Assembly (NCBI GenBank): GCA_964601615.1
Contig: CAZRNZ010000001.1
Location: 251,968 to 310,289 of the forward strand
Length of the DNA: 58,322 nt
DNA from: an uncultured Candidatus Saccharibacteria bacterium
Lineage (GTDB): Bacteria; Patescibacteriota; Minisyncoccia; Phycocordibacterales; UBA918
Direction: 5' to 3'
Numbering within the stretch: the stretch's first letter is position 1; every line of letters starts with the position of its first letter. The notes under the pieces are model-generated. The model did not search any database and was not told the origin of the DNA. It worked only from the letters and a program-made list of their open reading frames with translations. A program made the position numbers and the translations under genes. Shown here one piece after another: positions 4,957 to 42,785 of the stretch.

Positions 4957-6600
4957 CTAATACATTCCGCCCATATCCACTGCGCCACTATGAGAATGTT
5001 TTTCATCTTCTGGTTCATCAGCAATCGCTGCCTCTGAAGTCAGAAGTATTGCCGCAGCAGAAACTGCATGCTGCACACCAGCACGTTCCACTTTTACAGG
5101 ATCAATGATTCCTGCCTTAATCATATCTTCCACAAACTCACCTTTATAGGCATCATATCCAGCATTACTACCAGAATTTTTAACCTTATCTACCACAACA
5201 GCGCCATCAATCTTGCCTGTATTATCAGCGATTTGTTTTAGTGGCACCTCAAGTGCCTTAAGCACAATGTTGTAACCCACCAATTCTTCCCTTTCTAAAT
5301 CCTTCTTAGCCAAAAGATCTTTCTCAACCTTAGCTGCAGCTTTAGCCAAAGAAGTTCCCCCACCAGGCACAATTCCTTCGTCAATCGCTGCCTTGGTGGC
5401 ATTGACTGCATCTTCAATCTTAAGCTTAAGATACTTCATTTCAGTTTCAGTAGCAGCTCCAACTCGAAGTACGGCCACACCACCACTGAGTTTTGCAATT
5501 CTTTCTTCCAGCTTTTCTTTGTCGTATTTTGAAGTTGTGTTTTCCAACTGACCCTTGAGTGCAGATACACGACTATCAATCAACTGCTTCGTACCTGCCC
5601 CGCCAACGATTACAGTATTATCTTTTGTCGCCACAACACGACTCGCCTTCCCAAGATGAGACAAATCGGCATCTTCAAGCTTAAGACCAAGTTCTTCTGT
5701 TACAACCTCTCCACCAACCATTACTGCAATATCTTGCAAAACTTCTTTCTTTTTATCGCCAAATCCAGGAGCTTTAACTGCAAGCACCGAAAATCCTCCT
5801 TTCAACTTATTAATCACAAAAGTGGTTAAAGCTTCACCATCTACATCATCAGCGATAATCACGAGTTCTTTGCGGCCAGTTTGAGCAATCTTCTCCAACA
5901 AAGGCAAAATCTCCTTTACCGAAGAAATCTTTTTGTCAGTAATCAAAATGTCAGCTTCTTTATATTCAGCCTCCATTCGCTCTGCATTAGTAACCATATA
6001 TGGAGAGATATAGCCTTTATCAAACTCCATACCCTCAGTTAGTTCAGTTTCAATTCCAAAAGACTGACCTTCTTCTACAGTAACCACCCCATCTTTACCA
6101 ACCTTCTCAATCGTCTCAGCAATTTTTTCACCAATTTCGGCACTTTCAGCCGAAATCGTTGCTACCTGTTTTATTTCTTCACTAGACTTTATTTTGGTAG
6201 ACATTTCTTTTAGTGCCTCAACCACATCGATAGCAGCTTTCTCCATACCTGAACGAACAGCCATAGAATTCAAGCCCATTGAAGTCTGACGAAAACCCTC
6301 ATTTACCAAAGCCTGCATCAAAACAGTCGCTGTTGTTGTTCCATCACCTGCCAAATCATTAGTTTTATTGGCAACCTCTTTTACAATTTCAGCTCCCATG
6401 TTCTCAAACTTATCTTTCAGAGTAATCTCCTTTGCAATTGAGACACCATCGTTTGTAATAGTCGGTCCACCATAACCTTTGTCTAGGATGACATTTCTTC
6501 CTCGTGGTCCAAGAGTAACTTTTACAGCATTCGCTACAGTATCAACTCCAACCTTGAGTTTCTTTTTTACTTCTTCATCAAAAATCACTTGTTTTGCCAT
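4957..6600 (-). CDS. groL: Chaperonin GroEL (Cpn60)
   Basis: [10 protein letters not shown]...GPRGRNV...DGTTTATVL is present with a C-terminal GGM-type tail (DMGGMY). I chose the start at MAKQ (6600) rather than the ORF-track 6618, which would overlap groES. Confidence 0.97.
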
Positions 6601-6610
6601 AGAATTTGAT

Positions 6611-6922
6611 TTAACCAATAATAGCTAGCACGTTTGCCTCAGCTAAAACATAATACTCAATACCATCCACCTTTACGTCGTCGTAGCTATATTTAGAAAA
6701 CAACACTTTGTCTCCCACCTTTACGTCCACAGGCAGGCGTGAAGCGCCTGCTTCATTCCACTTTCCATCACCAACAGCAACAACAATTCCTTGTCCTGGC
6801 ATATCCTGCTTCGCTGTTTCAGGAATAATAATCCCAGAAACTGACACATTTCCAGCTTCCTCATCGGTCAGTGGACGAACCACTACACGATCTGCGAGAG
6901 GTTTAATGTTTACTTCTGACAT
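6611..6922 (-). CDS. groS: Co-chaperonin GroES (Cpn10)
   Basis: IKPLADRVVVRP....GIIIPETAK....G.VVAVG is the standard Cpn10 pattern, and the gene lies immediately upstream of groEL. Confidence 0.95.
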   Translation of the reverse strand: MSEVNIKPLADRVVVRPLTDEEAGNVSVSGIIIPETAKQDMPGQGIVVAVGDGKWNEAGASRLPVDVKVGDKVLFSKYSYDDVKVDGIEYYVLAEANVLAIIG

Positions 6923-7129
6923 AGATAAAAAAGCTTATTTAATTAAATTTCAATAAATTCAGAGAACGCAGCAAAAAAAATCAATAACTCCCTGAATTTA
7001 GTTGATTATATTTATATAATATAGGTATGTCAAAAAGCCTTATTTTTCTTTAAAAACATGCTTTTTCCCCAAACCGGAGATGACCTTATGTTTTGTGTTT
7101 TTTCTAGTTTATGATAATATTGTCGTGAT

Positions 7130-7372
7130 ATGGAATTCGTCCGATCGGTCATTATCCCGATACTACCGTATATACAGATAGTCCTCTCCGTACTTCTGAT
7201 AGCAGCTATTCTTCTGCAGCAGCGCGGTTCGAGTCTTGGTGGAGCATTTGGAGGAGATAACTTCTCTGCTTCTTTTCACAAGCGTCGTGGCGCGGAACTT
7301 TTCTTGTTTCGTCTTACTATAGTTTTGGCAATATTATTTGTATTGGCAGCTGTTTTGAATATAGTGGCTTAG
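7130..7372 (+). CDS. secG: Preprotein translocase subunit SecG
   Basis: The protein is 80 aa with two TM segments and the LLQQRGSSLGGAFGG motif. Confidence 0.85.
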   Translation: MEFVRSVIIPILPYIQIVLSVLLIAAILLQQRGSSLGGAFGGDNFSASFHKRRGAELFLFRLTIVLAILFVLAAVLNIVA

Positions 7373-7430
7373 TTAGTTTGGGTAAGTTACTTCGTTATCG
7401 AATTCCTTCGTAATAACAAATTATAAATAC

Positions 7431-9170
7431 ATGAATTTATCGTCTCCGAAATCCTTCGGATTCTCTATTTTTGACCGTTTATTTGGTTTTATTGAGTCAC
7501 TTAGGCCTACCGATAGATGGATTTTTGTCCTGTTACTGGTAATCTTTTTTATTAGTACAATTTGGACAATCTATTCTTTTTCTCGTTCACACTTAGTTAA
7601 TGTACCAGTGAGTGGCGGTGTTTTAATTGAAGGCGCAATTGGAAGCCCAAGATTTATTAACCCAATTTTAGCCATAACTCGTGCTGACAATGATTTAGTC
7701 GCACTAACATATAGTGGACTTACCCGACTTTCTCCTGAAGGTATAATGGAAAACGATTTAGCAGAGTCCATTACTATATCCGACGACGGTCGTGTCTATA
7801 ATATTATTTTAAGACAAGATAAATATTTTCATGACGGCACAAAAATAAAGGCGGAAGACGTAGCCTTTACAATTAGCCTTATTCAAAAACCCTCTTTAAA
7901 ATCTCCTCTTTATGGCAACTGGAGCGGTGTAACTGTTGAAGTTATTGATACTTACGAATTAAACTTTGTTATTGATAAACCGTACACACCTTTCCAGGAA
8001 AACTTTACTCTTGGTATTTTACCAAAACATATTTGGAGTACTTTAAGTGAAGAGGAACTTCCATTTAGTCAACACAATATTGAACCTGTTGGAAGTGGCT
8101 CATACCAAGTAGAAAAAGTCTTAAGAAATCCTGCTGGGTTGATTTCTGAATATGAACTTCGTACCGCTTCTGAATATCGACAAATGGCTAATATCGATCG
8201 AATTATAATCAAGTTTTATCAAAATGAAGAATCTGTTTTCACAGCCTTACAAAAAGGTGAAATAACAAGTACTGCTTATTTAAGTGAGCGATGGATTAGT
8301 CAGCTAAATAAGGATCAGTTTTATTCCGTATCAGAACCTTTACCTCGAGTTTTTTCTATTTTCTTTAATCAAAATAAGAATCCGTCACTTCGTGACGCCT
8401 CAGCCAGAAAAGCTTTAGATATCAGTATTGATCGTGAAGAATTAATGAAGGAAGTTGTAAATGGTATTGGCCATGATGCAAATTCACCAATTCCTACCTC
8501 ATGGCTAGGGACAGAATCATCAAAGAATAGTTATTTTTCTAAAGATGAAAGACTTGCTGAAGCCAGAAAAGTCCTAGAAGACGGTGGCTGGCGACAAAGC
8601 ACAAACGGTCGCTGGATTAAGACCATCGATGAAGTAGATACTCCACTTCTATTAACAGTCCGCTCTACTAACGACATTTTATTCGACAAGATATCGGCTT
8701 ATCTGATTCAGGTCTGGAAAGAGCTTGGTGCTGATGTAAGCTTTGAATTTTACGAACAAAGCGACTTGGTACAAACAGTTATTAGACCAAGAGATTATCA
8801 AGCGCTATTGTTTGGAGTTGACTTGGGAAGATCTCTCGATCTTTATCCATTCTGGCACTCAGCAAGTCGTGAAGATCCGGGATTAAATGTTTCTCTTTAT
8901 GCAAATATTGCTGTGGACAGAATTGTTTCAGAAATAAGATTAGCAACAACTACCGAAAGTAGAGATGGATTGATTAAAAGCTTTACTGAAGAAATAGAAA
9001 AGGAAAAACCGGCAATATTCCTATTTGCTCCATCATTTGAATATATACTTCGTTCAAATATTAAAACTGCGGAAATGAAAAAAATTCAGAAATCTAGCGA
9101 GAGATTTAGCAATGTCGTTGACTGGCACATGAATGAAAGCGGAGTATGGCCTTTCTTTAAAAATGAATAA
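7431..9170 (+). CDS. Family-5 (peptide/nickel type) ABC transporter substrate-binding protein, membrane-anchored
   Basis: It has an N-terminal TM anchor. GSPRFINPILA...DNDLVALTYSGL and the overall length match SBP_bac_5 proteins. No permease or ATPase gene is adjacent. Confidence 0.75.
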   Translation: MNLSSPKSFGFSIFDRLFGFIESLRPTDRWIFVLLLVIFFISTIWTIYSFSRSHLVNVPVSGGVLIEGAIGSPRFINPILAITRADNDLVALTYSGLTRLSPEGIMENDLAESITISDDGRVYNIILRQDKYFHDGTKIKAEDVAFTISLIQKPSLKSPLYGNWSGVTVEVIDTYELNFVIDKPYTPFQENFTLGILPKHIWSTLSEEELPFSQHNIEPVGSGSYQVEKVLRNPAGLISEYELRTASEYRQMANIDRIIIKFYQNEESVFTALQKGEITSTAYLSERWISQLNKDQFYSVSEPLPRVFSIFFNQNKNPSLRDASARKALDISIDREELMKEVVNGIGHDANSPIPTSWLGTESSKNSYFSKDERLAEARKVLEDGGWRQSTNGRWIKTIDEVDTPLLLTVRSTNDILFDKISAYLIQVWKELGADVSFEFYEQSDLVQTVIRPRDYQALLFGVDLGRSLDLYPFWHSASREDPGLNVSLYANIAVDRIVSEIRLATTTESRDGLIKSFTEEIEKEKPAIFLFAPSFEYILRSNIKTAEMKKIQKSSERFSNVVDWHMNESGVWPFFKNE

Positions 9171-13727: not shown

Positions 13728-14720
13728 TTAAAATAACTCTTTTCCTCTTTCCCAAATCTCATTATGTCCATGCTTTGTAAGCCAGTACCACCATTCGGCA
13801 CCCCATAGATACTGCCTATCGTAACGGGTTTTTGCTGCATAATCAATTATTTCATTTATCTTTTCTAAGTCCATTCTAGAGTACTGAGTTTCTAAATCAG
13901 TATCAGCAATAGGCTCAAGTAGCCACGGTTCTGCTGAAAGTTCGATTAAATAAGTAGGTTTTTCACCCAAGAATAACTTTACTAGATTCTCTTTTACGAT
14001 ATACCACCATGACGGAAGAATACTCTTTAATTGGCCAAAATCAGGATTCCAGAAATATACATAAACACTTGTACCAAAAGCATCACCATTTTTGTAAGGA
14101 CCAATCCAATTACCAAGATTCCCACTATCAGTCACCATTACTGGTCTAGTTGAATCAATACTTTTAACTAAAGCTATTTCTTCTTTAAGAAAATCTTCAT
14201 CCAAGTCACCACAATGTTCATTGGCAAATAGATTTAAATAGGGTTCGTTTTCAACCTGCCAATAAATAATCGAGGTTCTATCTTGGTAACGACCGATAAC
14301 TTCTTTAATTAATTCTCTAATTTCATTTTTTTGTTCTTCCCAACTTAAATCACTAGCCCACTCAGGAATATGACACTCTGGCCAACGCGGCAAACGGCGG
14401 CCAACAGCAAAAATTACATCAGCACCAACTTCTTCAGCTTTATCAAGTTGGTAATCAAGTTCAGCAAAATTGTAAGTATTTTTTTCAGGTTCAACCATTG
14501 GCCAATGAGCAGCCAAACGCAAATGTCTTACTCCAAGGTCGTACAAAATTGCATCATAAGTTTCTTTCCAGTCCAAACCTAATTCTTCAGCATAAAAAGT
14601 ATTAAATGACATGCCATAAGTTATTCTGCTCGGTTCTGACTTTCTAGAAAGAAAAAATAAAAACAACGAAACTGATACAACAAAAATTAGAAAAAATATT
14701 ATCCAGTGCTTTAATTTCAT
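13728..14720 (-). CDS. Clan GH-A TIM-barrel glycoside hydrolase (GH5/GH42-like), membrane-anchored
   Basis: It has an N-terminal TM segment and the catalytic acid/base motif WQVENEPY. I chose the start at 14720 (MKLKHW), where ATGA overlaps the stop of the upstream DMT gene. Confidence 0.65.
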   Translation of the reverse strand: MKLKHWIIFFLIFVVSVSLFLFFLSRKSEPSRITYGMSFNTFYAEELGLDWKETYDAILYDLGVRHLRLAAHWPMVEPEKNTYNFAELDYQLDKAEEVGADVIFAVGRRLPRWPECHIPEWASDLSWEEQKNEIRELIKEVIGRYQDRTSIIYWQVENEPYLNLFANEHCGDLDEDFLKEEIALVKSIDSTRPVMVTDSGNLGNWIGPYKNGDAFGTSVYVYFWNPDFGQLKSILPSWWYIVKENLVKLFLGEKPTYLIELSAEPWLLEPIADTDLETQYSRMDLEKINEIIDYAAKTRYDRQYLWGAEWWYWLTKHGHNEIWERGKELF

Positions 14721-15649
14721 ATAAACAAAATAGCAAATCCTATACAAATGATAGTAACATACATAAATTTACGTATAACTGTCTTTTTATCGTTATTTTT
14801 TTCTCTAACAGAATTAGGTAGGAATCCACTCAAGAAAACTGTTATTAATAAAATGAAGACAAACTTAAGACCATCAAGTGCCTGAACTACTGCAACATCT
14901 CCTAAATCTGTAGCTTTAAGAATCATGAAAGCTGATACTCCTGCTAAAATCTTACTTCCCAACACCAAGAAACTCGTCTTTTGACTGATATTTTTTGAGT
15001 TTCCAAAAATAAGCTTTTTAAACTTAGGAAAAAATAATAATGAAAGCGCTGTCAAAATAAGGGCTATTCGAGACCAGAAAAAACCGTCATCAAAATTAGT
15101 TGTATCAAACAGTATCTTCATCGCGATATAATGAAGTCCAAAAAAGACACCACTGCAAATTACGATTGGAATTAATTTTGCTGAAAACCCCATTCGAGAA
15201 ACTAGGAGAGTACCCAGTGCCAACAAACAAATACCTACCACATAATGAAGTGGATATAAGTTACCCAAAACTAACCAAGAAATTCCAAAAGTAGAAATTG
15301 CTGAAACAGCACCTACTACTGGCATTACATTTGAAGTATCTGCTTTCTTTAATCCCTGATAAAGAGTAACTATTGCAATAAAAAATGTATAAGCTGATAG
15401 TAGTGAAATAATAATAACTTCCAATGTAGGGAAAATAACATTAGAAAACTGAGGAATACCGAACCTATCTAATCCTGGAACGAAGCTAAGCAAATAGACC
15501 AATAACCAAGCTGCTGTTATCAAACAAGTATAAAAAGCGTAAACAAAAGGCTTTGGTAGGGCTTTACTGTCTGTAACTAGATATTTATCAACAATTGCAA
15601 CGATTGCATTCAAAAACTGGGCAATAGCTGTAAGAAGAATCCATGACAT
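14717..15649 (-). CDS. EamA/DMT-superfamily transporter
   Basis: It has about ten TM helices arranged as two similar halves, the typical drug/metabolite transporter topology. Confidence 0.65.
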   Translation of the reverse strand: MSWILLTAIAQFLNAIVAIVDKYLVTDSKALPKPFVYAFYTCLITAAWLLVYLLSFVPGLDRFGIPQFSNVIFPTLEVIIISLLSAYTFFIAIVTLYQGLKKADTSNVMPVVGAVSAISTFGISWLVLGNLYPLHYVVGICLLALGTLLVSRMGFSAKLIPIVICSGVFFGLHYIAMKILFDTTNFDDGFFWSRIALILTALSLLFFPKFKKLIFGNSKNISQKTSFLVLGSKILAGVSAFMILKATDLGDVAVVQALDGLKFVFILLITVFLSGFLPNSVREKNNDKKTVIRKFMYVTIICIGFAILFI

Positions 15650-15670
15650 AGGTTTGAATTATTGTTCTTA

Positions 15671-15699
15671 TATAGAGGCGAGCAAAGCTCGCCTCTATA
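15671..15699 (-). terminator. 13-bp perfect hairpin between the GH1 and DMT genes (no clear U-tract; terminator, attenuator or processing site)
   Basis: The sequence is tatagaggcgagc-aaa-gctcgcctctata. On the minus strand the following sequence is taagaacaat, so it is not a canonical terminator. Confidence 0.35.
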
Positions 15700-15713
15700 T
15701 TAATTTCTAACAA

Positions 15714-16964
15714 CTATTCTACTACACCATTATTCTCAATAATCTTTTTATACACGTAGGCTGAAGGGCGTATTTTTCTTTCTAGAGTTTTGTAATCAAT
15801 TTCAATCAAACCAAATCGCTTTTCAAAACCTAGTGCCCACTCATAGTTGTCAAGAAGTGACCAATAGATATGACTCCTCACATCAACACCATCTTGTATC
15901 GCTTGATATGTCCCCTCAACTTGTCTTGTAATATATTCCGCCCTTCCATTATCCAAAGCATCAGCTACACCAGCCTCAGATACATAAACTGGCTTATTGT
16001 AGCGTTTCAACATCATTAATGCGTCATAAATGCGTTCTGGTGCAAAATTCCAATCCATATCTGTTTTACGCCAAGTACGCTTATCGCCATACTGGGTATA
16101 AAAATAATAATTCAAGCCAATGGAGTCAAAATGGCCTTTTGTGCGACGCATGAATCTATGGCTCCAAAGTTGATTAGAAATAAGTGCCTTAATTTTATTG
16201 AAGGGATTCCAATTAGAATCAAAAACAATTACATGATGTACAAAGTTTACATTTGAATCAGGGCAAACTTCTTTAATTTTTTTGTAAGCAGCGTTATGAG
16301 AAAGTGCTAAAGTTTTCATCACCTTAAAATATGAACGCAAGTTTCTGAATTCTTTTTGAGCTTTATCTTCAAAAGAACTACCTGAGTTTGTAATTGAAAC
16401 CAAATCAGTCAATGCAAAACGCTTAAATGGCGGCCAGCTACCACGAAGCCAACCATTACTACCATAAACACTCGGTTCATTAATGGTAGAAAAATTAGTG
16501 CATAAATCTCCTAACTTCTCCGCTACATAACCACAGTATCGAGCAAAAACTTCTGGAGCATCTTTTCTCTCAAAACCACCAGTTTCAGAAAACCAGAGTG
16601 GCAAAGTAAAATGCCATATTGTAATAAAAGGTTCGAGGCCGCGGGCGCGGAGCGCCCGCAACACCTCACGGTAGTGCTCTATCTCGACTTCATTAAATTT
16701 TCCTTCTTCAGGCTCAATTCTTGCCCACTCAACTGAAAAACGATGTGCATTATGTCCAAGCTCTTTTGCTAAATCAAAATCTGATTCAAAACGATTATAA
16801 TGATCACAAGCAATTCCGCATTCTGGGACCCTTCCATCACGAGCTGCATTTGCCCAATCAGTATTTTCAATTCCTCCTTCTACTTGATAACTGGCTGTTG
16901 CGGCACCCCACAGAAAACCTTTCGGAAATTTCATCTCTTTTTGCATTAGTGAATTATAACCCAT
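15714..16964 (-). CDS. GH1 beta-glucosidase
   Basis: FPKGFLWGAATASYQVEGG, TINEP (acid/base) and YVSEAG (nucleophile region, ITENG-type) are present, plus DNYEW. The start may be the internal MKF (16934). Confidence 0.9.
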   Translation of the reverse strand: MGYNSLMQKEMKFPKGFLWGAATASYQVEGGIENTDWANAARDGRVPECGIACDHYNRFESDFDLAKELGHNAHRFSVEWARIEPEEGKFNEVEIEHYREVLRALRARGLEPFITIWHFTLPLWFSETGGFERKDAPEVFARYCGYVAEKLGDLCTNFSTINEPSVYGSNGWLRGSWPPFKRFALTDLVSITNSGSSFEDKAQKEFRNLRSYFKVMKTLALSHNAAYKKIKEVCPDSNVNFVHHVIVFDSNWNPFNKIKALISNQLWSHRFMRRTKGHFDSIGLNYYFYTQYGDKRTWRKTDMDWNFAPERIYDALMMLKRYNKPVYVSEAGVADALDNGRAEYITRQVEGTYQAIQDGVDVRSHIYWSLLDNYEWALGFEKRFGLIEIDYKTLERKIRPSAYVYKKIIENNGVVE

Positions 16965-16967
16965 ATT

Positions 16968-16998
16968 AAAAAGTACGGACGATGCCCGTACTTTTTTT
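16968..16998 (-). terminator. Intrinsic terminator after the YHYH-like gene (end of the dsbA/Mur-ligase/ATP-grasp unit)
   Basis: On the minus strand the sequence reads aaaaaaa-gtacgg-gcatcgt-ccgtac-ttttt. Confidence 0.7.
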
Positions 16999-17012: not shown

Positions 17013-17582
17013 CTAATTAACCCCAAAACAACCAGAGAAAGAAGGATAATCAGATTTCAGATAATACTTATATCCCATTCCTTCATCAATTCCTCCACAA
17101 TTATTTAAGGATGAAGAATCAAATCTTGCTCCAAAAATCGGATATCCATCTAATGCAGTTCCAATTTGTTCAAACATGCTAAAACCAGCAAATCGCCAGA
17201 GTTCATCACTATATAAAGAGTATCCATCTGTCGTCTTTCCAATCAAAATACGCGAGAGTTCAGTTTGATCAGTAATAGAGACATTGTCGGTAATAATGTC
17301 ATCAACAGAAGTAAATACAGGAGCTCCAGCAGAAATATCACCACGTCCATCTGCTATTTTCGCTTTCAGCCTAGCAATATTTTCATTTCGAGGAATCTCT
17401 TTCTCTGATTCAGAAATAGCACCTTCTATTTCTTTAATAGAACCAGAACTAAAATCAATAGAACCGACCGAGGCAATCTGTGACGTACTTGAAAAGGTTT
17501 GACTAAGTAAAGTAACTCCAATACCTGAAGTTATAAAACAAAAAGCAATTGCAAAAACAATAAAATCCCTAGTTCTAATCAT
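17013..17582 (-). CDS. Secreted or anchored protein with a YHYH-like C-terminal domain
   Basis: It has an N-terminal TM segment. The C-terminus DGYPIFG....CGG.....YKYYLKSDYPSFSGCFG resembles the YHYH domain pattern (PIYG...C.GH...YHYH...C). It is the last gene before the 16973-16991 terminator. Confidence 0.4.
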   Translation of the reverse strand: MIRTRDFIVFAIAFCFITSGIGVTLLSQTFSSTSQIASVGSIDFSSGSIKEIEGAISESEKEIPRNENIARLKAKIADGRGDISAGAPVFTSVDDIITDNVSITDQTELSRILIGKTTDGYSLYSDELWRFAGFSMFEQIGTALDGYPIFGARFDSSSLNNCGGIDEGMGYKYYLKSDYPSFSGCFGVN

Positions 17583-17624
17583 TCTTAAATTATAACAGAC
17601 ACAAGAATTGTGTAAATTTATAGA

Positions 17625-18908
17625 CTAAATAATCTCTACACTTATCGTACTTTCAAATCTCTTTATGTCAGCCAATAAATCAGAGCGAGAATCGTTTACT
17701 AGATAAAGTACAAATATTGCACCGCCGCCATTTTTAGCGAAGACACTTTTATCTCCACGCTTTTTACGCATCTCAATACTATGAAAAGAATCAAGCTTTT
17801 CAATTTTTTTCAAACCTAAAATACTCTTAATCTCACCCTCTTCCTTAGCGTAATACTTAATAGCCGCAGCAAATCTTTTACAACGTCGAGGAACAATAGG
17901 CTGCTTGCCCATACGTACTAAAACATCATTCATTCCATGATTTATGCCACAAGAAAGTCTATGAAGCTTTGGTCTAAAACCACCAATGCGAGCACCGATT
18001 TCAATAATTTTCCAATCGTTGTCAACACGCATCAACTCTACGTGTACAGTTGTGTTACGTAGTCCGAGCGCATGAACACCCCGCTTCACAACATCCTGAG
18101 CCCTCTTTACAGTTATAGAAGAAAGGCTAGTTGGAGTACTCTGCAGATACCCAAAGAAATCATCACGACCAATATCATGACCTGTCTTTTGGCGCACAAG
18201 TGGACAACAAGTTACTTTTCCACGACCAGAAACGTAAGCGTCAATTGAGTATTGCAATCCTTCCATGTATTCCTCAGCAATAATACGAGGCTTTTCTGTT
18301 CGGCCATTCTCTTCGTAAATTTTATCAATATTTTTGAGAATATCCTTTACAGCCTTTCGTAGCTCATCTTTGTGATGACAAACACTTATCAAAAGACTTT
18401 GAGCCAAGTTTGTTGGCTTTACAATCATTGGTAAACCAACTTTTGCAATTACTCTATCGAGTTCAATATCTTCAGCATTTTTAACCAAAGTATATTTAGG
18501 AGAAATAGAAGAATCGGCCACCTTAAAGTGACGACGCATCAAACGTTTATCACTAGCCCATTTAAGAGAATCTGGAGTAGGAGTCTGCAAATAAGGTACA
18601 AAAGGAATAATACGAATCAAGTCAGCCAAATAAGATTCAGCACGACTAGTTATAGCGCAAAGCTCATCTTGGTAAGGTGCCAATGCTTCCTGTAACTTTG
18701 CATCATCACTAAAACTTACACACAAAACATGATCAACACCTTCAAGCTTTGCACCACTTTGCTTTTTAGTTAATGCCCTATCTGCATTATCAATAAGCAT
18801 TACTCTATATTTTTCTCCAGAACTTTTCTCGTAAGCTCTGATGTCAGCTATTGCCTCATTGGTAACTTTTGAGACATAAGCGATAATGTTTCTTTTTCTT
18901 TTTGGCAT
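17625..18908 (-). CDS. ATP-grasp ligase (L-amino-acid-ligase / carboxylate-amine ligase type)
   Basis: It has a pre-ATP-grasp region. LPMIVKPTNLAQS, IAEEYMEG and VELMRVDNDWKIIEIGARIGG are typical ATP-grasp B and C subdomain motifs. Confidence 0.8.
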   Translation of the reverse strand: MPKRKRNIIAYVSKVTNEAIADIRAYEKSSGEKYRVMLIDNADRALTKKQSGAKLEGVDHVLCVSFSDDAKLQEALAPYQDELCAITSRAESYLADLIRIIPFVPYLQTPTPDSLKWASDKRLMRRHFKVADSSISPKYTLVKNAEDIELDRVIAKVGLPMIVKPTNLAQSLLISVCHHKDELRKAVKDILKNIDKIYEENGRTEKPRIIAEEYMEGLQYSIDAYVSGRGKVTCCPLVRQKTGHDIGRDDFFGYLQSTPTSLSSITVKRAQDVVKRGVHALGLRNTTVHVELMRVDNDWKIIEIGARIGGFRPKLHRLSCGINHGMNDVLVRMGKQPIVPRRCKRFAAAIKYYAKEEGEIKSILGLKKIEKLDSFHSIEMRKKRGDKSVFAKNGGGAIFVLYLVNDSRSDLLADIKRFESTISVEII

Positions 18909-18975
18909 ATGATAAAGACGGCAAAAATGCTAACACGAAATAACTACTAATGAGCACTAGGACACAGAAACTACT

Positions 18976-20235
18976 TTAAACAAAATCTGCGTTAAACTTT
19001 TCTTTAATCCAATTTATTGAACGGGTAATATCATCATTTACAATCACCACGACTACGTCACCTGCTTTTGATATTTCCGCAGCTTTTTCAAGAGCCAAGT
19101 CTTCTCTGAGGATTTGTTCAACGTTTGGATTCTTTGTTTTAATAGCTTCAGAAAATATTTTAGAAATCTTACCTACTTCCTGAGTAAAACGCTTGAACTG
19201 AACCTCTTTAGGATGTCTAAAATGTCCATCAATTTTATCATAAACCACAAACTGATCGTAATGTTCTGCAATGGTCTTTCCAGTATCTTCTATTAGTTCG
19301 TTTGTACGATCATAAGCTAACCGAACAACTCCAGTAACCTTACCATTCTTACCTTTCATCTTATGAGCAAGTTTCCCTACATCAACTAAAGATTTTTTTT
19401 CGTGAGCATAGTCCGCGATAATCAACTGACCTCTCTCGCCCTTGAGTAAAGTCAATCTTCCACCATAAGGATCAAGGCGACTTGATCTCAAGATATCTCC
19501 AAGGTTTTCTGGTACATAACCAAGTAAGGAAATTACCCCAGATACTACTGCTAACAAATTGTAGACCGAAGGAATATACTGTCCATTAAATGTCCAGACA
19601 ATATCGTTCACTCTCACAATTTCAATTTCCTTTTTATTTTTGTTATCGAAATAAATTACAACATCATTTTTAATTGTGACAAAATCATTATCAATATTCA
19701 GTCCAAAAAGATTCAAACCAAAGAAAAAAGGTGTTACACCACGATCAACTGGTAAAAGCGGTAAAGCCTTCATCACTAACTCATCATCATAATTCAAGAT
19801 AGCTTTTCCATCAGACAAAATTCTTTCAAAAATAAAAGATTTTGCTTTAAAAATATCTTCTCTACTTTTTATACGTTCGGAGTTTCCAATATGATCTTCA
19901 AAAATATTCAAAAAAATACCAACCTGATGCAGTGCATAACCAAGTCCAGAAAGAGTACTAGATCCAAGAGAAGCCTCTAAAACAGCCACACTATCCTCTG
20001 TGTCTTTACCAATAAATTCATATAAATAACGTCCTGGTGCAACACTGGGTACCAATCCCCAGTTTTTAGTAGAATCTTCAAAACTACTTCTTCTTTCACC
20101 ATTAAGAAAATGTCCTGTTGTATTTACCAACAAAACATCTCCTTTGCATATATGCCCAAAAACATACGCTAATATGTTAACTACCGTTGTTTTGCCTTTA
20201 GTGCCTGTAACGGCAACTTTTCTTACTCGGCTCAT
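18976..20235 (-). CDS. Mur-ligase-family protein lacking the N-terminal domain, resembling the cyanophycin synthetase M domain
   Basis: The P-loop VAVTGTKGKTT sits at residue 8. TTGHFLNGE....VAVLEASLGS....IFLNIFEDHIG and DYAHE follow the CphA M-domain / Mur middle plus C-terminal domain order. Confidence 0.75.
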   Translation of the reverse strand: MSRVRKVAVTGTKGKTTVVNILAYVFGHICKGDVLLVNTTGHFLNGERRSSFEDSTKNWGLVPSVAPGRYLYEFIGKDTEDSVAVLEASLGSSTLSGLGYALHQVGIFLNIFEDHIGNSERIKSREDIFKAKSFIFERILSDGKAILNYDDELVMKALPLLPVDRGVTPFFFGLNLFGLNIDNDFVTIKNDVVIYFDNKNKKEIEIVRVNDIVWTFNGQYIPSVYNLLAVVSGVISLLGYVPENLGDILRSSRLDPYGGRLTLLKGERGQLIIADYAHEKKSLVDVGKLAHKMKGKNGKVTGVVRLAYDRTNELIEDTGKTIAEHYDQFVVYDKIDGHFRHPKEVQFKRFTQEVGKISKIFSEAIKTKNPNVEQILREDLALEKAAEISKAGDVVVVIVNDDITRSINWIKEKFNADFV

Positions 20236-20249
20236 ATGAACGAAATTAA

Positions 20250-20894
20250 TTATTCAGCAACTTCTGTTGAATTTTCTTCTACTGCAGACTTAATTTGTGC
20301 CAAAAAATCTTCAAAAGTAGTAAATGACATGGTCTCACCATTCAAAGTAAACGAAGGAGTGCCTGTATAACCCTTTGAACGAGCCTCATTAAAACTATCG
20401 TCAATAGATTTCCTTATAATAGAAGAATCTAGATGCTTCTTAAACAAGACCATATCTAATCCAATTTCTTCAGCAAATTTATTAAAGCTAGCTGCCGGGC
20501 TTGTGGAACGGCTCCAAGTTGCCTGATTTTCAAAAAGTTTGTCGTGCATCTCCCAAAACTTACCCTGCTGTCCAGCTGCTTCAGCAGCAATAGCAGCTGG
20601 TACTGCCTGAGGATGAATATTAATTAGAGGAAAATGCTTATATTCAAAACGAATAGATTCACCATACTGCTCAACAACCTCCTTTACGTAAGGATAAAAT
20701 TGCGCACAAGCAGGACACTGAAAATCACTATATTCAACCAATACAACACTAGCATCTGGATTACCTTTTACGTGAGTTTCAATTACAACACCTTCGTCAG
20801 CTTTTTTAGAAACCTGATTTGAGTAATATATTGAGCCGCCGATAGATAAAACGACTACCAAAGCTGCAATTTTCCAAAAGTGTTTTTTTAGCAT
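20250..20894 (-). CDS. Membrane-anchored DsbA-family thiol:disulfide oxidoreductase
   Basis: It has an N-terminal TM segment and a thioredoxin fold with the CPAC active site (YSDFQCPACAQF). Confidence 0.85.
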   Translation of the reverse strand: MLKKHFWKIAALVVVLSIGGSIYYSNQVSKKADEGVVIETHVKGNPDASVVLVEYSDFQCPACAQFYPYVKEVVEQYGESIRFEYKHFPLINIHPQAVPAAIAAEAAGQQGKFWEMHDKLFENQATWSRSTSPAASFNKFAEEIGLDMVLFKKHLDSSIIRKSIDDSFNEARSKGYTGTPSFTLNGETMSFTTFEDFLAQIKSAVEENSTEVAE

Positions 20895-20923: not shown

Positions 20924-21661
20924 ATGGCAAAACGACCATTTATTCGAAAACAAAAGAAAAAGCAACACGGAGTCACTTTCTGGGACAAAGAGTATTCTGC
21001 TGGTGGCGGACACTTGGCACTTTCAGGTGATGAAAGTGAAGATTTGGCCAAATTCACCAGATGGCTACCAAGACAAAAATCTCAAACACCGATTGAAGGT
21101 AATGCAAATGTACTTGATCTTGGTTGCGGAAATGGTAGAAATTTAATTTTTCTATCGAGAGAATTTGATATGCATGGAATTGGTTACGATAGCTCTCCCG
21201 CAGCTATCTCTGAAGCTAAAAGAGCTTCGGGTGATCTTCCAATAAAATACGAGGCTCGTAGTATTGCTGGTGAAATAAAACTAGAAGATTCTTCTCAGGA
21301 TTTGATTTTGGATATGATGACTTCCCATTTCCTAAACGAGTCTGAAAGAAAGTTTTTGCGTGATGAAATTCATAGATTACTTCGCCCTGGTGGATGGTTA
21401 TTTATGAAAACTTTTCTTTTAGATGAAGACCTTCACAGTCGTAGACTTTTGAAAGATTTTCCAGGCAAAGAAGAAGGGACTTACATTCACCCAGTTATTG
21501 GTGTTCCTGAACACGTTTACGACGAAGAAGAACTAACAGATTTTTTGGGAGAAAAATTTATTGTTCATAAAGTTTACCGTTCTCACCGCCATCGCTCTCA
21601 AGGTAAGGCACGTAAACGTCGAACAATTTCTGTTTACGCACAAAAAGATCCGTTCAAATAA
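20924..21661 (+). CDS. Class I SAM-dependent methyltransferase with basic termini
   Basis: It has motif I (VLDLGCGNGRN) and post-I/II motifs. Both N- and C-terminal tails are Lys/Arg-rich. Confidence 0.8.
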   Translation: MAKRPFIRKQKKKQHGVTFWDKEYSAGGGHLALSGDESEDLAKFTRWLPRQKSQTPIEGNANVLDLGCGNGRNLIFLSREFDMHGIGYDSSPAAISEAKRASGDLPIKYEARSIAGEIKLEDSSQDLILDMMTSHFLNESERKFLRDEIHRLLRPGGWLFMKTFLLDEDLHSRRLLKDFPGKEEGTYIHPVIGVPEHVYDEEELTDFLGEKFIVHKVYRSHRHRSQGKARKRRTISVYAQKDPFK

Positions 21662-21680: not shown

Positions 21681-21712
21681 AAAACCGCCTTTTTACAGGC
21701 GGTTATTGTTTT
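21681..21712 (+). terminator. Intrinsic terminator after the methyltransferase gene
   Basis: The hairpin aaccgcc-tttttaca-ggcggtt is followed by attgtttta. Confidence 0.65.
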
Positions 21713-23369
21713 AAGTTTCCTGGAATTCTGGCAGTGTCCTCACCTTTATACTTGACTGATTACCTGGGCAATCAAGTGTGTAAATAACTTCACCACCTTC
21801 TACTCGATCTTGGAATGTCCCAGAGGAATTATTTATACTATAAATAGCTATTCCGCCCTTCCTAATAGTACAAGTACCAGGAGCGCTAGTACCTACATTA
21901 TATGTCAAAGTAATAATCCCATTAGGACGAACTAGATGACTAAATAATTCTTTATCAGAAGTTAAAGATGCCCCTGAACCTGTAATAACAGTAGCTAAAA
22001 CAGCACTTTGACTTGATCCACCAGGACCAGTACAAACTAAGCGGAACGACGTGTTTTCAGTAAGTGCTCCAGTATTCTGTGAACCACCGCTAGCAGCTTT
22101 ATTACCGCTCCAACCATCAAAAGCAGAGCAAGAAGTAGCATTTGAAGTGGACCAAGTTAGAGTAGCACTATCACCATAGACTACAGACAAAGGATTTATT
22201 GATAAAGATACTGTAGGTAAAGCATATGAAACACTAACAGTCACAGAATCACTTGAAGTACCACCAGGACCGCTACAACTGATAGAGTATGTTCTGCTTG
22301 AAGTAAGGGCACCAGTACTTTGTGATCCGCCTGTAGCAACCTTTGATCCCGACCAGCTATTTGATGCCGTGCAAGAAGTAGCGTTTGAGGTAGACCAATA
22401 GAGGGTACTACTATTTCCATAAGAAATAGAAGATGGACTAGCTGTTAATGAAACCGTCGGAGGAGGGGTAGTTACGCCCACTGTTACACTTCTACTAGTT
22501 GATCCACCTGGACCAGAACATGTTATAGAGTATGTCCTACCAGAAGTTAGGGATCCTGTGTAATGATTACCACTAGTAGACTTAGAACCAGACCAAGAAC
22601 CACTAGCAGAACAAGAAGTAGCGTTTGAGGTAGACCAATATAAATATGTGCCATTACCAGACACTACTGATGCTGGGCTAGCGTAGAAGGAGATGGTGGG
22701 AGCTTGAGCTGAAACATTTATTGTAACAGACCTACTAACTGTACCTCCTCCATTACCTGTACAGGTGATAGTAAAAGTAGTTGGAGATGTCAAACCACTA
22801 ACAGACTGAGATCCACCATCAACACTCTTACTACCAGACCAGCCACCAGATGCTGTACAAGATGATGCTGTCGACTTATTACCACTGTAACTATAATTAT
22901 GTCTAGATACAGACCAACTTAATGTTGTACCACCTCCAGAGGGGACAGTGGAAGGACTGGCAGAGAGCGTGATAACTGGAGTTGGATGTGAAGCATAAAC
23001 AACTGCAGACACACCTTTCCTTTCACCAGAACTACTAGTGCAATGAAGTTGCCAGACGAAACTAGATGAACCTGTTGACCAGTTGTATGGCAAATTAATT
23101 GCACCAGTACTTTCTGTTCCACTAGTAGTACTTCGTGGTCCTGACCAATTAGGTGCAGGCTCAGCAATACAAGAAACAGCGCCAGTAACAGTCCAGCGTA
23201 GAGTACTACTTTGTCCTGAAGTAATATATGAAGGACTAGCAGTTAGGTTAACATTTGGAGCCTGAGCATTTGTTTTTGCGGGAAAAAAAGTAAAGATACC
23301 TAAAAAAAATGCCAACAAGATTAATGAGACTATCTTCTTATCAAATTTAGATATACTTAAATTAAACAT
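21711..23369 (-). CDS. Secreted Ser/Thr/Gly-rich protein built from 5 tandem ~85-aa beta-sandwich-like repeats plus a variant C-terminal repeat
   Basis: It has a signal peptide ending TNAQA. The repeating unit is L.ASPS.....ST L.WST.NATSC.AS..WSGSK...G.Q.TG.LT....Y.I.C.GPGG, with two Cys per unit. Confidence 0.7.
   Translation of the reverse strand: MFNLSISKFDKKIVSLILLAFFLGIFTFFPAKTNAQAPNVNLTASPSYITSGQSSTLRWTVTGAVSCIAEPAPNWSGPRSTTSGTESTGAINLPYNWSTGSSSFVWQLHCTSSSGERKGVSAVVYASHPTPVITLSASPSTVPSGGGTTLSWSVSRHNYSYSGNKSTASSCTASGGWSGSKSVDGGSQSVSGLTSPTTFTITCTGNGGGTVSRSVTINVSAQAPTISFYASPASVVSGNGTYLYWSTSNATSCSASGSWSGSKSTSGNHYTGSLTSGRTYSITCSGPGGSTSRSVTVGVTTPPPTVSLTASPSSISYGNSSTLYWSTSNATSCTASNSWSGSKVATGGSQSTGALTSSRTYSISCSGPGGTSSDSVTVSVSYALPTVSLSINPLSVVYGDSATLTWSTSNATSCSAFDGWSGNKAASGGSQNTGALTENTSFRLVCTGPGGSSQSAVLATVITGSGASLTSDKELFSHLVRPNGIITLTYNVGTSAPGTCTIRKGGIAIYSINNSSGTFQDRVEGGEVIYTLDCPGNQSSIKVRTLPEFQET
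21990..23258 (-). repeat. Five in-frame tandem coding repeats of about 250 bp
   Basis: The protein repeat unit of about 85 aa recurs five times with conserved W.T/WSTSNATSC, WSGSK and C.GPGG positions. Confidence 0.75.
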
Positions 23370-31956: not shown

Positions 31957-32619
31957 ATGTCAGAGTTTTTTAAATATTCAAAGAACTTAGAGTACTTGTT
32001 TGCTGAACATGGAGAAGTAATTAACTACGAAGAAAACCAGCACCTGGTCTGGAATAAAGATAAATGTCCTTGGGTGTTTTTCTTAAAGGAAGGTTTAGTG
32101 AAAGTTACCTTTAACTTTTCTGAAAAAGATACTCGTCTTATCGGATACTTTGTTCCTGGACACATCTTTGCTCAAAGTGGTTCTTTTATTGGTGAATATG
32201 ATGGACGTCTTTCTTATACTGCTAAAACAAAAACTAAAGTTTATCGAATGAAGCATTCGATATTTATAAAATTAACTAAAAAATATCCAGAGGTGATGAA
32301 CGAGTATTTAGATATGACACTTCGTAATCAGTTATTACTGATTGACAGAGTTGTTTACCAAGGAGAAAAAGGTTTATATCTCAAGTGTGTTCGTTGGCTC
32401 TTATTTATGGCGAAATATTATGGCAAGACTACCAAAGACCATGTAGAGATAATTGTTCCAATGACACAAGAAACCGCAGCTAATTTCCTTCATACCACAC
32501 GAGAAAGCCTAAACGTAATGCTTCGCAAATTAGAGAAGGAAGAAATCATCAGTACTAAACACAAAAAGATAGAGATATTAAAACTCTCAAAACTAAAGAA
32601 GATTGTCAAAAGCGACTAA
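31957..32619 (+). CDS. Crp/FNR-family transcriptional regulator, paralog 1 (220 aa)
   Basis: It has a cNMP-binding-like beta-barrel (FFLKEGLVKV......IGYFVPGHIFAQ) and a C-terminal HTH (MTQETAANFLHTTRESLNVMLRKLEKEEIIS). It is the same length as the 42123..42785 product and clearly alignable with it. Confidence 0.8.
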   Translation: MSEFFKYSKNLEYLFAEHGEVINYEENQHLVWNKDKCPWVFFLKEGLVKVTFNFSEKDTRLIGYFVPGHIFAQSGSFIGEYDGRLSYTAKTKTKVYRMKHSIFIKLTKKYPEVMNEYLDMTLRNQLLLIDRVVYQGEKGLYLKCVRWLLFMAKYYGKTTKDHVEIIVPMTQETAANFLHTTRESLNVMLRKLEKEEIISTKHKKIEILKLSKLKKIVKSD

Positions 32620-42122: not shown

Positions 42123-42785
42123 ATGTCTGACTTCTTTACGCCTAAACTAGCCTTAAATGACTTCTTTTATGAAAACGGTGAACTGGTGAACTATCCTGTG
42201 GGTCACTTTGTTATCCACCAAAAAGACGAATACGGCTACATGTCTCTTGTTATTAAGGGTGCCATACGAGCAACATGCTCTTTTGATGAAGATTTGGAGC
42301 GTACTGTAGCCTACATCATCCCCAATACTATTATTGGTCAACCAGGTGCTAACTATGGTTTCAAAGATGGTAGATTAAACTTCGTAGCTGAGACTCCCAT
42401 AACAGTAAGGAGGGTGAAGAAGGAGTTATTCATGAAGCGCATCAAAGAAAACGCTCATTTTACGAGCGACTATGTCGATGTATTACAGCGTAATCAAATA
42501 GTTCTACTTAATCGTGTTGCCGCCCTAAGCGCTAAGGGAGTAGATGCCCAGTGTGCTCACCTATTAAATTTTATGCGTCTTTACTATGGAGTACGCAAAG
42601 GAAATACCTGTGAAATAGTTGTGCCACTAACCCAAACTTCGATTGCTGAAATGATCTTTGCTACTCGCGAGAGTGTAAATAGTTCTATTAAAAACCTGAT
42701 AGTCGAGAAAATAATAAAGTCAGAAAAAAAGAAAATTACTATTCTAAATATCAAGAAATTAGAACAGCTATCTAAGCGACTTTAG
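42123..42785 (+). CDS. Crp/FNR-family transcriptional regulator, paralog 2 (220 aa)
   Basis: It has the same architecture and length as 31957..32619, with the HTH LTQTSIAEMIFATRESVNSSIKNLIVEKIIKS. It is divergent from the 1150-aa lectin gene. Confidence 0.8.
   Translation: MSDFFTPKLALNDFFYENGELVNYPVGHFVIHQKDEYGYMSLVIKGAIRATCSFDEDLERTVAYIIPNTIIGQPGANYGFKDGRLNFVAETPITVRRVKKELFMKRIKENAHFTSDYVDVLQRNQIVLLNRVAALSAKGVDAQCAHLLNFMRLYYGVRKGNTCEIVVPLTQTSIAEMIFATRESVNSSIKNLIVEKIIKSEKKKITILNIKKLEQLSKRL

Follow-up and report, generated by a model that had tools for sequence, protein, structure and literature searches.

Why does a genome of the Candidatus Saccharibacteria carry, side by side, two genes for ATP-dependent amide ligases, and do the two enzymes serve one product? 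The question is raised by a 58,322-nucleotide stretch of DNA from an uncultured member of this group (contig CAZRNZ010000001.1, positions 251,968 to 310,289; hereafter the window), in which four co-directional open reading frames (ORFs) lie on the minus strand (20250-20894, 18976-20235, 17625-18908 and 17013-17582), separated by spacers of exactly 14, 67 and 42 bp, in agreement with the original prediction made for this locus. The second ORF encodes a free-standing Mur ligase of 419 residues, hereafter MurL, of the type of the M domain of cyanophycin synthetase (CphA), and the third encodes a cytoplasmic ATP-grasp ligase of 427 residues, of the L-amino-acid-ligase (LAL) type; the pair is flanked by genes for a DsbA-like protein and a small secreted or membrane-anchored protein. 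In the original prediction the two ligases were taken for a split two-enzyme amide-ligation system with the M and G functions of CphA in swapped order (M then G). The likeness of MurL to the CphA M domain proves to be real and strong (by NCBIfam, PDB profile search and Foldseek), but the order-swapped reading is wrong at this locus, the ATP-grasp being of the LAL type and not a G domain. We see about an even chance that MurL and the LAL-type enzyme act on the same product, as a modular two-ligase system making an oligo- or poly-amino-acid, possibly branched.

MurL (18976-20235, minus strand) comprises a Mur_ligase_M domain (PF08245, 7e-16) that begins at residue 9 and a Mur_ligase_C domain (PF02875, 6e-07), both above gathering scores. 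Its P-loop ATPase domain (P-loop GTKGKTT, residues 11-17), its Mur_ligase_C domain and its conserved catalytic residues place it in the Mur ligase superfamily. It has neither an N-terminal substrate domain nor a signal peptide; absence of the N-terminal domain had been predicted and is borne out by the start of Mur_ligase_M at residue 9, and the four motifs pointed out at the time (TTGHFLNGE, VAVLEASLGS, IFLNIFEDHIG and DYAHE) can all be found in the translated sequence.

Amongst NCBIfam models MurL matches positions 479-860 of cyanophycin synthetase (E 2.6e-45, 154.8 bits), with the best MurE model at 1.4e-20 and 73 bits. A PDB sequence search with MurL alone gave CphA1 at 5.7e-17 and MurE at about 1e-4; with a profile of 24 family members the values were 6.3e-37 and 1.1e-10, respectively, and MurT, FolC and PgsB gave no match to this profile. 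The AlphaFold2 model of MurL (pLDDT 91.3) is likewise closest to CphA1 in Foldseek (4e-26, TM 0.80), ahead of MurE (2e-19, TM 0.70). An exhaustive search of 1.84 billion cluster representatives with the MurL profile returned roughly 100 stand-alone proteins of 400-440 residues, with scores from 661 down to about 160 bits, and directly next to these, from 162 bits, came proteins of CphA length (865-930 residues, matched at about 475-870). By profile, fold and exhaustive search, then, MurL has its nearest relatives in the M domains of CphA; profile and fold both rank CphA first, and there is no firm grouping with MurC-F or FolC.

In the alignment of the 24 family members K15, T16, T39, E87, D114, H115, R260 and H278 of MurL are invariant, and they align with K499, T500, T522, E558, R731 and H748 of TeCphA1 and with D585 and H586 of SuCphA1. 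These CphA1 residues are involved in ATP binding or activity of the M domain as judged by mutation or structure, and M-domain activity requires D585 and H586 of SuCphA1 (PMC9427784, PMC9262961). Judged by this alignment, the catalytic apparatus of MurL is intact. K132 is also invariant in the family, and by analogy with MurD, MurE and MurF we presume it to be the carbamyl-lysine position. The invariant positions specific to the family further include H42, W59, R69 and W214 and the motifs YDKIDG and RLAYDR.

Other assignments of MurL were rejected. A canonical MurC, MurD, MurE or MurF is ruled out by the absent N-terminal UDP-MurNAc-binding domain and by the MurE score of 73 bits against a curated cut-off of 373, and MurT by the lack of DUF1727 in Pfam and NCBIfam and of a GatD-like neighbour among the ORFs scanned. 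PgsB/CapB and FolC/FPGS are both absent from the NCBIfam and PDB matches at the thresholds applied. A full CphA would have N and G domains, both missing from the 419 residues of MurL, whose 154.8 bits fall far below the curated CphA cut-off of 850.

MurL is one of a family with more than 450 homologues, all stand-alone proteins of 415-450 residues, of which the nearest is only 57% identical. The family falls into roughly 100 sequence clusters, mostly from Patescibacteria, and wherever the source names the organism of a homologue it belongs to this phylum (Saccharibacteria, Parcubacteria and others). The exhaustive search also returned proteins of 600-650 residues (P0365, P0370, P0375 and similar) with a full CphA-M-like region at roughly 212-609, preceded by about 210-230 residues, too short for N and G domains; this architecture fits neither CphA1 nor the stand-alone MurL family.

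The partner enzyme (17625-18908, minus strand) is, as had been predicted, a free-standing ATP-grasp ligase, with a match to ATP-grasp_4 (PF13535, 9e-22) and a weak one to LAL_C2 (PF18603, 0.0087). NCBIfam gave PRK07206, BacD and DdaF, all below their cut-offs and the equivalogs far below; the PDB sequence matches are 4dim, BL00235 and BacD. The AlphaFold2 model (pLDDT 89.3) retrieved BL00235, 4dim, BacD/YwfE and RizA at ranks 1-7 of the Foldseek list, and CphA is absent from the top 50. The entry 4dim is deposited as a phosphoribosylglycinamide synthetase. No pairwise similarity was found between the window ATP-grasp and a stand-alone CphA-G-like protein. Sequence and predicted fold thus make the enzyme one of LAL type, with a putative ligation activity; a CphA G domain or a RimK is ruled out by the PDB matches, the fold ranking and the pairwise comparison. 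Homologues of the ATP-grasp number 997, are up to 85% identical (many of them 75-85%) and, where named, come from Kaiserbacteria, Nomurabacteria and Paceibacterota, by which the organism of the window is placed with the Paceibacteria-like Patescibacteria.

We surveyed 31 distinct MurL loci; an alignment-based contig scan found relatives where a single-sequence scan gave none, and a metagenome scan added at least six true members. An ATP-grasp ligase gene lies on the same strand within about 4 kb of MurL, mostly within one or two genes, at 25 of the 31 loci, and its class varies between lineages, being RimK, RloC-like, CphA-G-like or LAL-type. The order MurL, RimB-like retropepsin, RimK is found in Saccharibacteria (L001, L003, L007, L010, L012, L013, L090, L093 and L094), with RimB fused to RimK in one further locus of this group (L009); the RimK of L001 is bona fide, matching a solved alpha-L-glutamate ligase at 2.5e-90. 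In Moranbacteria and others (L014, L015, L016, L025 and L095) a 7TM_transglut protein and an RloC-like ligase fused to a retropepsin accompany MurL, often with a RimK-family ligase. An LAL-type partner is present in the window and in L002, L005, L091 and L023. In L019 and L024 apparent glycosyltransferase genes, read from N-terminal sequence only, follow MurL, and one of these MurL genes is preceded by a polysaccharide-deacetylase-like gene (by the same N-terminal reading, with no profile search).

Stand-alone CphA-G-like ATP-grasps lie beside or near MurL in L016, L020, L095, L010 and L093, and weakly in L023. Their matches to the CphA model reach 3.5e-52 in L016 (positions 211-474), 2.2e-77 in L020, 2.9e-48 in L095 and 4.7e-35 in L010, and the L016 protein matches CphA1 in the PDB at 7.7e-30. 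On these profile matches at least five loci (L016, L020, L095, L010 and L093) are true split G+M pairs, and a split of the kind originally proposed does exist in relatives. In L016, from Moranbacteria, the 318-residue CphA-G-like protein and MurL are encoded side by side (5956-8188) with no N domain, preceded by the 7TM_transglut gene and the gene for the RloC-like ligase fused to a retropepsin; the catalytic G-domain residue H267 of SuCphA1 aligns with an Asn in this CphA-G-like protein.

Two further arrangements were seen in the survey. Paralogous MurL genes in tandem, with overlapping stop and start codons, occur in L017 (6902-9438) and L018 (6902-9444), from metagenome-assembled genomes labelled Gammaproteobacteria, and no ATP-grasp gene was detected near either tandem. 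Directly upstream of MurL in several Saccharibacteria lies a gene for a protein of 351-371 residues (L001:4874-5989, L003:4949-6004, L010:5823-6887, L093:4780-5877 and L022:3648-4718) that has no Pfam, NCBIfam or PDB match and is hit only marginally (about 1e-4) by an iterated ATP-grasp profile. This protein may belong to the system as a fourth component.

Co-conservation of the ligase pair, which the original prediction expected, holds in part. Beyond the adjacency to some ATP-grasp at 25 of 31 loci, the pairing of MurL with the LAL-type enzyme recurs in four further genomes (L002, L005, L091 and L023), with MurL 32-57% identical to that of the window. In a neighbour-joining tree the MurL proteins of the window, L002, L005 and L091, in all of which the LAL-type partner follows in the window order, form one clade, whose members are 51-57% identical to the window MurL and which lies beside the RimB/RimK-linked Saccharibacterial clade. 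In L023 the LAL-type gene is upstream of MurL, and this MurL branches far from the window clade. The pairing is not strict, however: the four loci L085-L088 lack MurL. The ATP-grasps of L002, L005 and L091 are only 44-50% identical to that of the window, and the similar divergence of MurL and ATP-grasp would fit vertical inheritance of the pair, with MurL lost or replaced in the lineage of L085-L088; spread of the pair by horizontal acquisition is also compatible with the data.

The L085-L088 block otherwise has the order methyltransferase, DsbA, ATP-grasp, homologue of the 189-residue protein, GH1, EamA-like and GH42-like, and one or two RimK-family ligases follow the ATP-grasp (for example L085:7306-9032 and L087:7301-8161). 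One class of amide ligase seems here to have been exchanged naturally for another. A RimB-like retropepsin comes after the ATP-grasp in L170-L172, where the opposite strand carries a gene for a MATCAP-like peptidase. The LAL-type enzyme, standing beside a RimK-family ligase or a RimB-like peptidase, is therefore tied to the same functional network as MurL: MurL, the LAL type and the RimK family with its RimB-type peptidase form one neighbourhood network, in which the ligase classes can adjoin one another in any pairing. In L170 (4986-8219) the ATP-grasp is 58% identical to that of the window, the protein on the opposite strand is MATCAP-like (tubulin tyrosine carboxypeptidase family) or of the QEGLA-motif kind, and EF-P lies divergently upstream; this context suggests processing of the C-terminus of a protein or peptide.

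What, then, might the two enzymes do together? ATP-grasp ligases acyl-phosphorylate a carboxylate and form an amide bond; those of LAL type phosphorylate an alpha-carboxylate and make alpha-peptide bonds. In CphA the G domain extends the C-terminus of the backbone, and the M domain, which adds the arginine, phosphorylates a side-chain carboxylate and then joins the amino acid to it. By the same logic, which is that of CphA (G then M) and also of Ddl followed by MurF, the LAL-type ATP-grasp would first build an alpha-linked di-, oligo- or poly-amino-acid chain, and MurL would then branch or cap that chain at a free carboxylate, by joining to it either an amino acid or the product of the ATP-grasp. 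Both ligases are predicted to be cytoplasmic, and the window would represent a minimal version of a variable group of amide-ligase genes. Across the family the partner of MurL is interchangeable (RimK with RimB, RloC-like, CphA-G-like or LAL), which makes an acidic oligo- or poly-amino-acid chain the likely class of substrate, whether free or as a C-terminal tail on a protein. In published work RimK makes poly-alpha-Glu chains or tails which RimB trims (PMC11957051), and the CphA G domain nests within the RimK-type ATP-grasps (PMC11915815). That the two window enzymes share a product, the order of their steps and the nature of that product are the conjectural parts of this scheme; their folds, their family placement, the catalytic residues and the neighbourhood network are observed.

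Several observations weigh against a common product. Characterised LALs mostly yield free dipeptides and not polymers. The ATP-grasps most like that of the window (81-83% identical) are those of L085-L088, without MurL at the locus, and in L089 and L173 the ATP-grasp is accompanied by the GH1, EamA-like and GH42-like genes with a second ligase absent nearby; the partnership of MurL and the LAL-type enzyme is therefore not obligate. No RimB, RimK, CphA-G-like, cyanophycinase or other peptide-handling gene was seen in the window ORFs that were checked. The glycosyltransferase genes that adjoin some MurL family members (L019 and L024) would fit a cell-surface product. The region was found in four DNA metagenome runs, all from one study, and in no RNA run.

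In a different account of the pair the product is a small peptide: the LAL-type enzyme would make a dipeptide, and MurL would add this dipeptide, or a third residue, to a carboxylate, giving a soluble di- or tripeptide in the manner of Ddl then MurF or of GshA then GshB. Candidates would be a compatible solute, a low-molecular-weight thiol or a dipeptide-type antimetabolite, exported perhaps by the EamA-like protein encoded nearby. The closest folds to the ATP-grasp are indeed those of the dipeptide-forming LALs BL00235, BacD and RizA, a RimB-type peptidase is absent from the window, and the CphA-G-like partners of other MurL genes also match the ATP-grasp modules of GshAB and N-acetylglutaminylglutamine synthetase, both makers of small peptides. 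The ATP-grasp, moreover, remains syntenic with the EamA-like protein in relatives only 49-53% identical; the EamA match is weak, however (33 bits), and this synteny may merely reflect inheritance. Against a small peptide stand the nearest relatives of MurL, the CphA enzymes, which act on a polymer, and the ties of the MurL family in most lineages to the poly-Glu-forming RimK and the poly-Glu-trimming RimB. We regard a small-peptide product as unlikely.

That the pair are mere neighbours with independent functions, the ATP-grasp belonging to a conserved block and MurL being an accessory gene in a permissive slot, seems to us distinctly doubtful. The MurL-less block of L085-L088, the solitary ATP-grasps of L089 and L173 and the absence of an LAL-type partner from 26 of the 31 MurL loci all speak for it. 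Yet the slot always holds an amide ligase, MurL or RimK-family, and never an unrelated gene; MurL adjoins some ATP-grasp ligase at 25 of 31 loci in very different lineages and with very different flanks; and the order MurL then LAL is kept in four lineages only 44-57% identical to the window. A role at the cell wall or envelope, in which MurL would add an amino acid or peptide branch, supplied by the ATP-grasp, to a carboxylate of the peptidoglycan stem peptide, much as MurT amidates it, or of another envelope polymer, is very improbable, for although MurL is of the Mur ligase superfamily (with MurT as a precedent for a Mur ligase lacking the UDP-binding N domain), DsbA and secreted proteins flank the pair, and the distant family members L019 and L024 have glycosyltransferase and, in one case, polysaccharide-deacetylase-like genes around MurL (again by N-terminal reading), MurT-specific features and GatD are lacking, the family profile misses MurT and ranks CphA far above MurE, the usual dcw/mur genes are not near the pair in the window, and the dominant family context, RimK/RimB, is cytoplasmic.

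A conserved stand-alone M-type family with an intact active site, kept in the reduced genomes of Saccharibacteria, Moranbacteria, Paceibacteria and relatives and almost always beside another amide ligase, is of interest. To our knowledge, the fused N-G-M enzyme has until now been the only setting in which ligation to side-chain carboxylates of the CphA M type is known, and full-text literature searches brought up no account of a CphA-M-like ligase that stands alone or of a Rim-type operon that contains a Mur ligase. Small genomes keep few biosynthetic genes, and a multi-ligase system that is retained in them is therefore probably important; amino-acid storage, tailing of ribosomes or other proteins, or a secreted or osmoprotective peptide are possible functions. 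Somewhat speculatively, and with a rather low chance in our estimation of being right, the CphA-M-type ligases and interchangeable ATP-grasps (RimK, CphA-G-like, RloC-like and LAL) of Patescibacteria could together make an as yet undescribed product. A candidate for this may be a cyanophycin-like branched polyamide, with an alpha-linked acidic backbone and amino acids on its side-chain carboxylates, which would provide auxotrophic symbionts with an amino-acid store; another may be a tail of branched polyglutamate carried by a protein, ribosomal protein S6 for instance. If such an undescribed product is made, the split G+M gene pairs would be either unfused forerunners of CphA or products of its break-up. 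The G-like and M-like genes lying side by side in some relatives offer a testable route to the evolutionary origin of CphA. New ATP-dependent amino-acid polymerases would also be of biotechnological interest.

The family bears on annotation too. Several MurL homologues carry the JGI name 'cyanophycin synthetase', and automated calls of this enzyme in Patescibacteria may thus be over-annotations. A 2026 preprint on Saccharimonadia reports cyanophycin synthetase in 5 of 21 genomes and cyanophycinase in none, which would fit MurL family members annotated as CphA.

The two genes flanking the ligases appear to have a looser connection with them. The first gene of the run (20250-20894, minus strand) encodes a DsbA-like thiol:disulfide oxidoreductase of 214 residues (Thioredoxin_4 1e-28, in keeping with the predicted DsbA; DSBA 1e-17) with a CPAC motif and an N-terminal membrane or signal segment. 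It is found at the same position with MurL in L002 and L091 and without it in L085-L088, and is probably not part of the ligase chemistry. The fourth gene (17013-17582, minus strand) encodes the small secreted or membrane-anchored protein, of 189 residues, which the original prediction had called YHYH-like and secreted: the N-terminal anchor and a degenerate C-terminal motif (DGYPIFG...CGG...GYKYY...GCF) are present, but the match to YHYH (PF14240) is below threshold (E 0.0055, 17.1 bits against a cut-off of 25), and none of 25 homologues has a Pfam domain. The protein is 47% identical to one of 183 residues at the same position in L085, and its C-terminal third is 33% identical to a 267-residue protein in L002. 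The suggested link of the ligases to envelope proteins is positional only, with DsbA and the small secreted protein staying in place with or without MurL.

Downstream of the run a palindromic, GC-containing hairpin with flanking A- and T-runs, at 16968-16996, looks like a bidirectional intrinsic terminator that ends it. A terminator had been predicted at 16973-16991, with none inside the run; the hairpin and T-run are there, and no convincing minus-strand terminator was found between the four genes. The 42-bp spacer before the 189-residue gene contains, at 17589-17616 on the minus strand, the best promoter-like element of the region (TTTACA, 16 nt, TG-TATAAT; 11 of 12 matches to the sigma-70 consensus, with an extended -10), a consensus match in a region where promoter-like sites are no commoner than in shuffled sequence. 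Given the strength of this sigma-70-like element, the fourth gene may have its own promoter.

Beyond the hairpin, on the same strand, lie genes for a GH1 glycosidase (15714-16964), an EamA-like membrane protein of 310 residues (14717-15649) and a membrane-anchored GH42/GH10-like TIM-barrel protein (13728-14747), all assigned by Pfam. As called, the last of these has a TTG start and shares 31 bp with the end of the EamA-like gene; its true start is probably further downstream. A perfect palindrome with a 14-bp stem (ATATAGAGGCGAGC AAA GCTCGCCTCTATAT) lies at 15670-15700 between the GH1 and EamA-like genes. The GH1/EamA-like/GH42-like block accompanies the LAL-type ATP-grasp in all relatives examined except L005 and L170-L172, with synteny in L002, L085-L089, L091 and L173. 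Divergent from the DsbA gene on the plus strand is a class I SAM methyltransferase gene (20924-21661, 245 residues; Pfam), present in the same relative orientation in L085-L088 and L091.

The rest of the window has ordinary Patescibacteria content, including RNase J, an SBP_bac_5 binding protein, LemA, PspC, DprA, RelA/SpoT and Dus, together with GroES/GroEL-like genes read from their N-terminal sequences with no profile search; roughly 34 ORFs were scanned and these included no other Mur ligase, Ddl, cyanophycinase, RimK or RimB. Between 29351 and 42785 are encoded three large surface proteins (867, 1904 and 1150 residues), each ending in PG_binding_1, whose other domains are nine Big_6 with Big_13, a beta-helix/NosD region and an M26-N/GLUG region. 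Two paralogous Crp/Fnr-type regulators of 220 residues (31957-32619 and 42123-42785) are each divergent from one of these large proteins. A secreted protein of 552 residues (21711-23369, minus strand), rich in Ser, Thr and Gly and with no Pfam match, contains about five repeats of roughly 85 residues with conserved Cys and Trp (...STLxWSTSNATSCxAS..WSGSK...).

Amongst known systems the pair invites comparison first with CphA1, which carries N, G and M on one chain (PDB 7LG5, 7WAC) and whose product is multi-L-arginyl-poly-L-aspartate. Its M domain is the closest known relative of MurL, with the conserved ATP, Mg and catalytic residues in common, and MurL too adjoins an ATP-grasp ligase, which in some relatives is a stand-alone CphA-G-like protein. 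Unlike CphA1, MurL is unfused and lacks an N domain, and its partner in the window is of LAL and not G type; the C-terminal, amino-acid-binding domain has the motif YDKIDG where CphA has EDDDTRGR, and no cyanophycinase was seen among the scanned ORFs of the 58-kb window. RimK and RimB, which modify ribosomal protein S6, are the commonest genomic partners of the MurL family, following it in the order MurL, RimB, RimK in Saccharibacteria, and RimK-family and RimB-like genes also adjoin the LAL-type family of the window in relatives; neither gene, however, is in the window, and in the literature searched we found no published Rim system with a Mur-type ligase.

The LALs (BacD/YwfE, BL00235 and RizA) have the same layout as the window ATP-grasp, namely an N-terminal domain, ATP-grasp_4 and an LAL_C2-like C-terminal domain. 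The window enzyme is, however, only 15-18% identical to them, is not in an antibiotic gene cluster, and belongs to a kind whose partner is a Mur-type or RimK-family ligase or else a RimB-like peptidase. MurT/GatD, PgsB/CapB and FolC share the ATP-dependent, carboxylate-activating superfamily, and MurT and PgsB also lack the UDP-binding N domain, but MurL has a standard Mur_ligase_C where MurT has DUF1727. In Ddl followed by MurF, members of these two superfamilies work successively on a single peptide, whereas MurL has no UDP-binding N-terminal domain and is much nearer to CphA than to MurF, and the ATP-grasp is not a Ddl.

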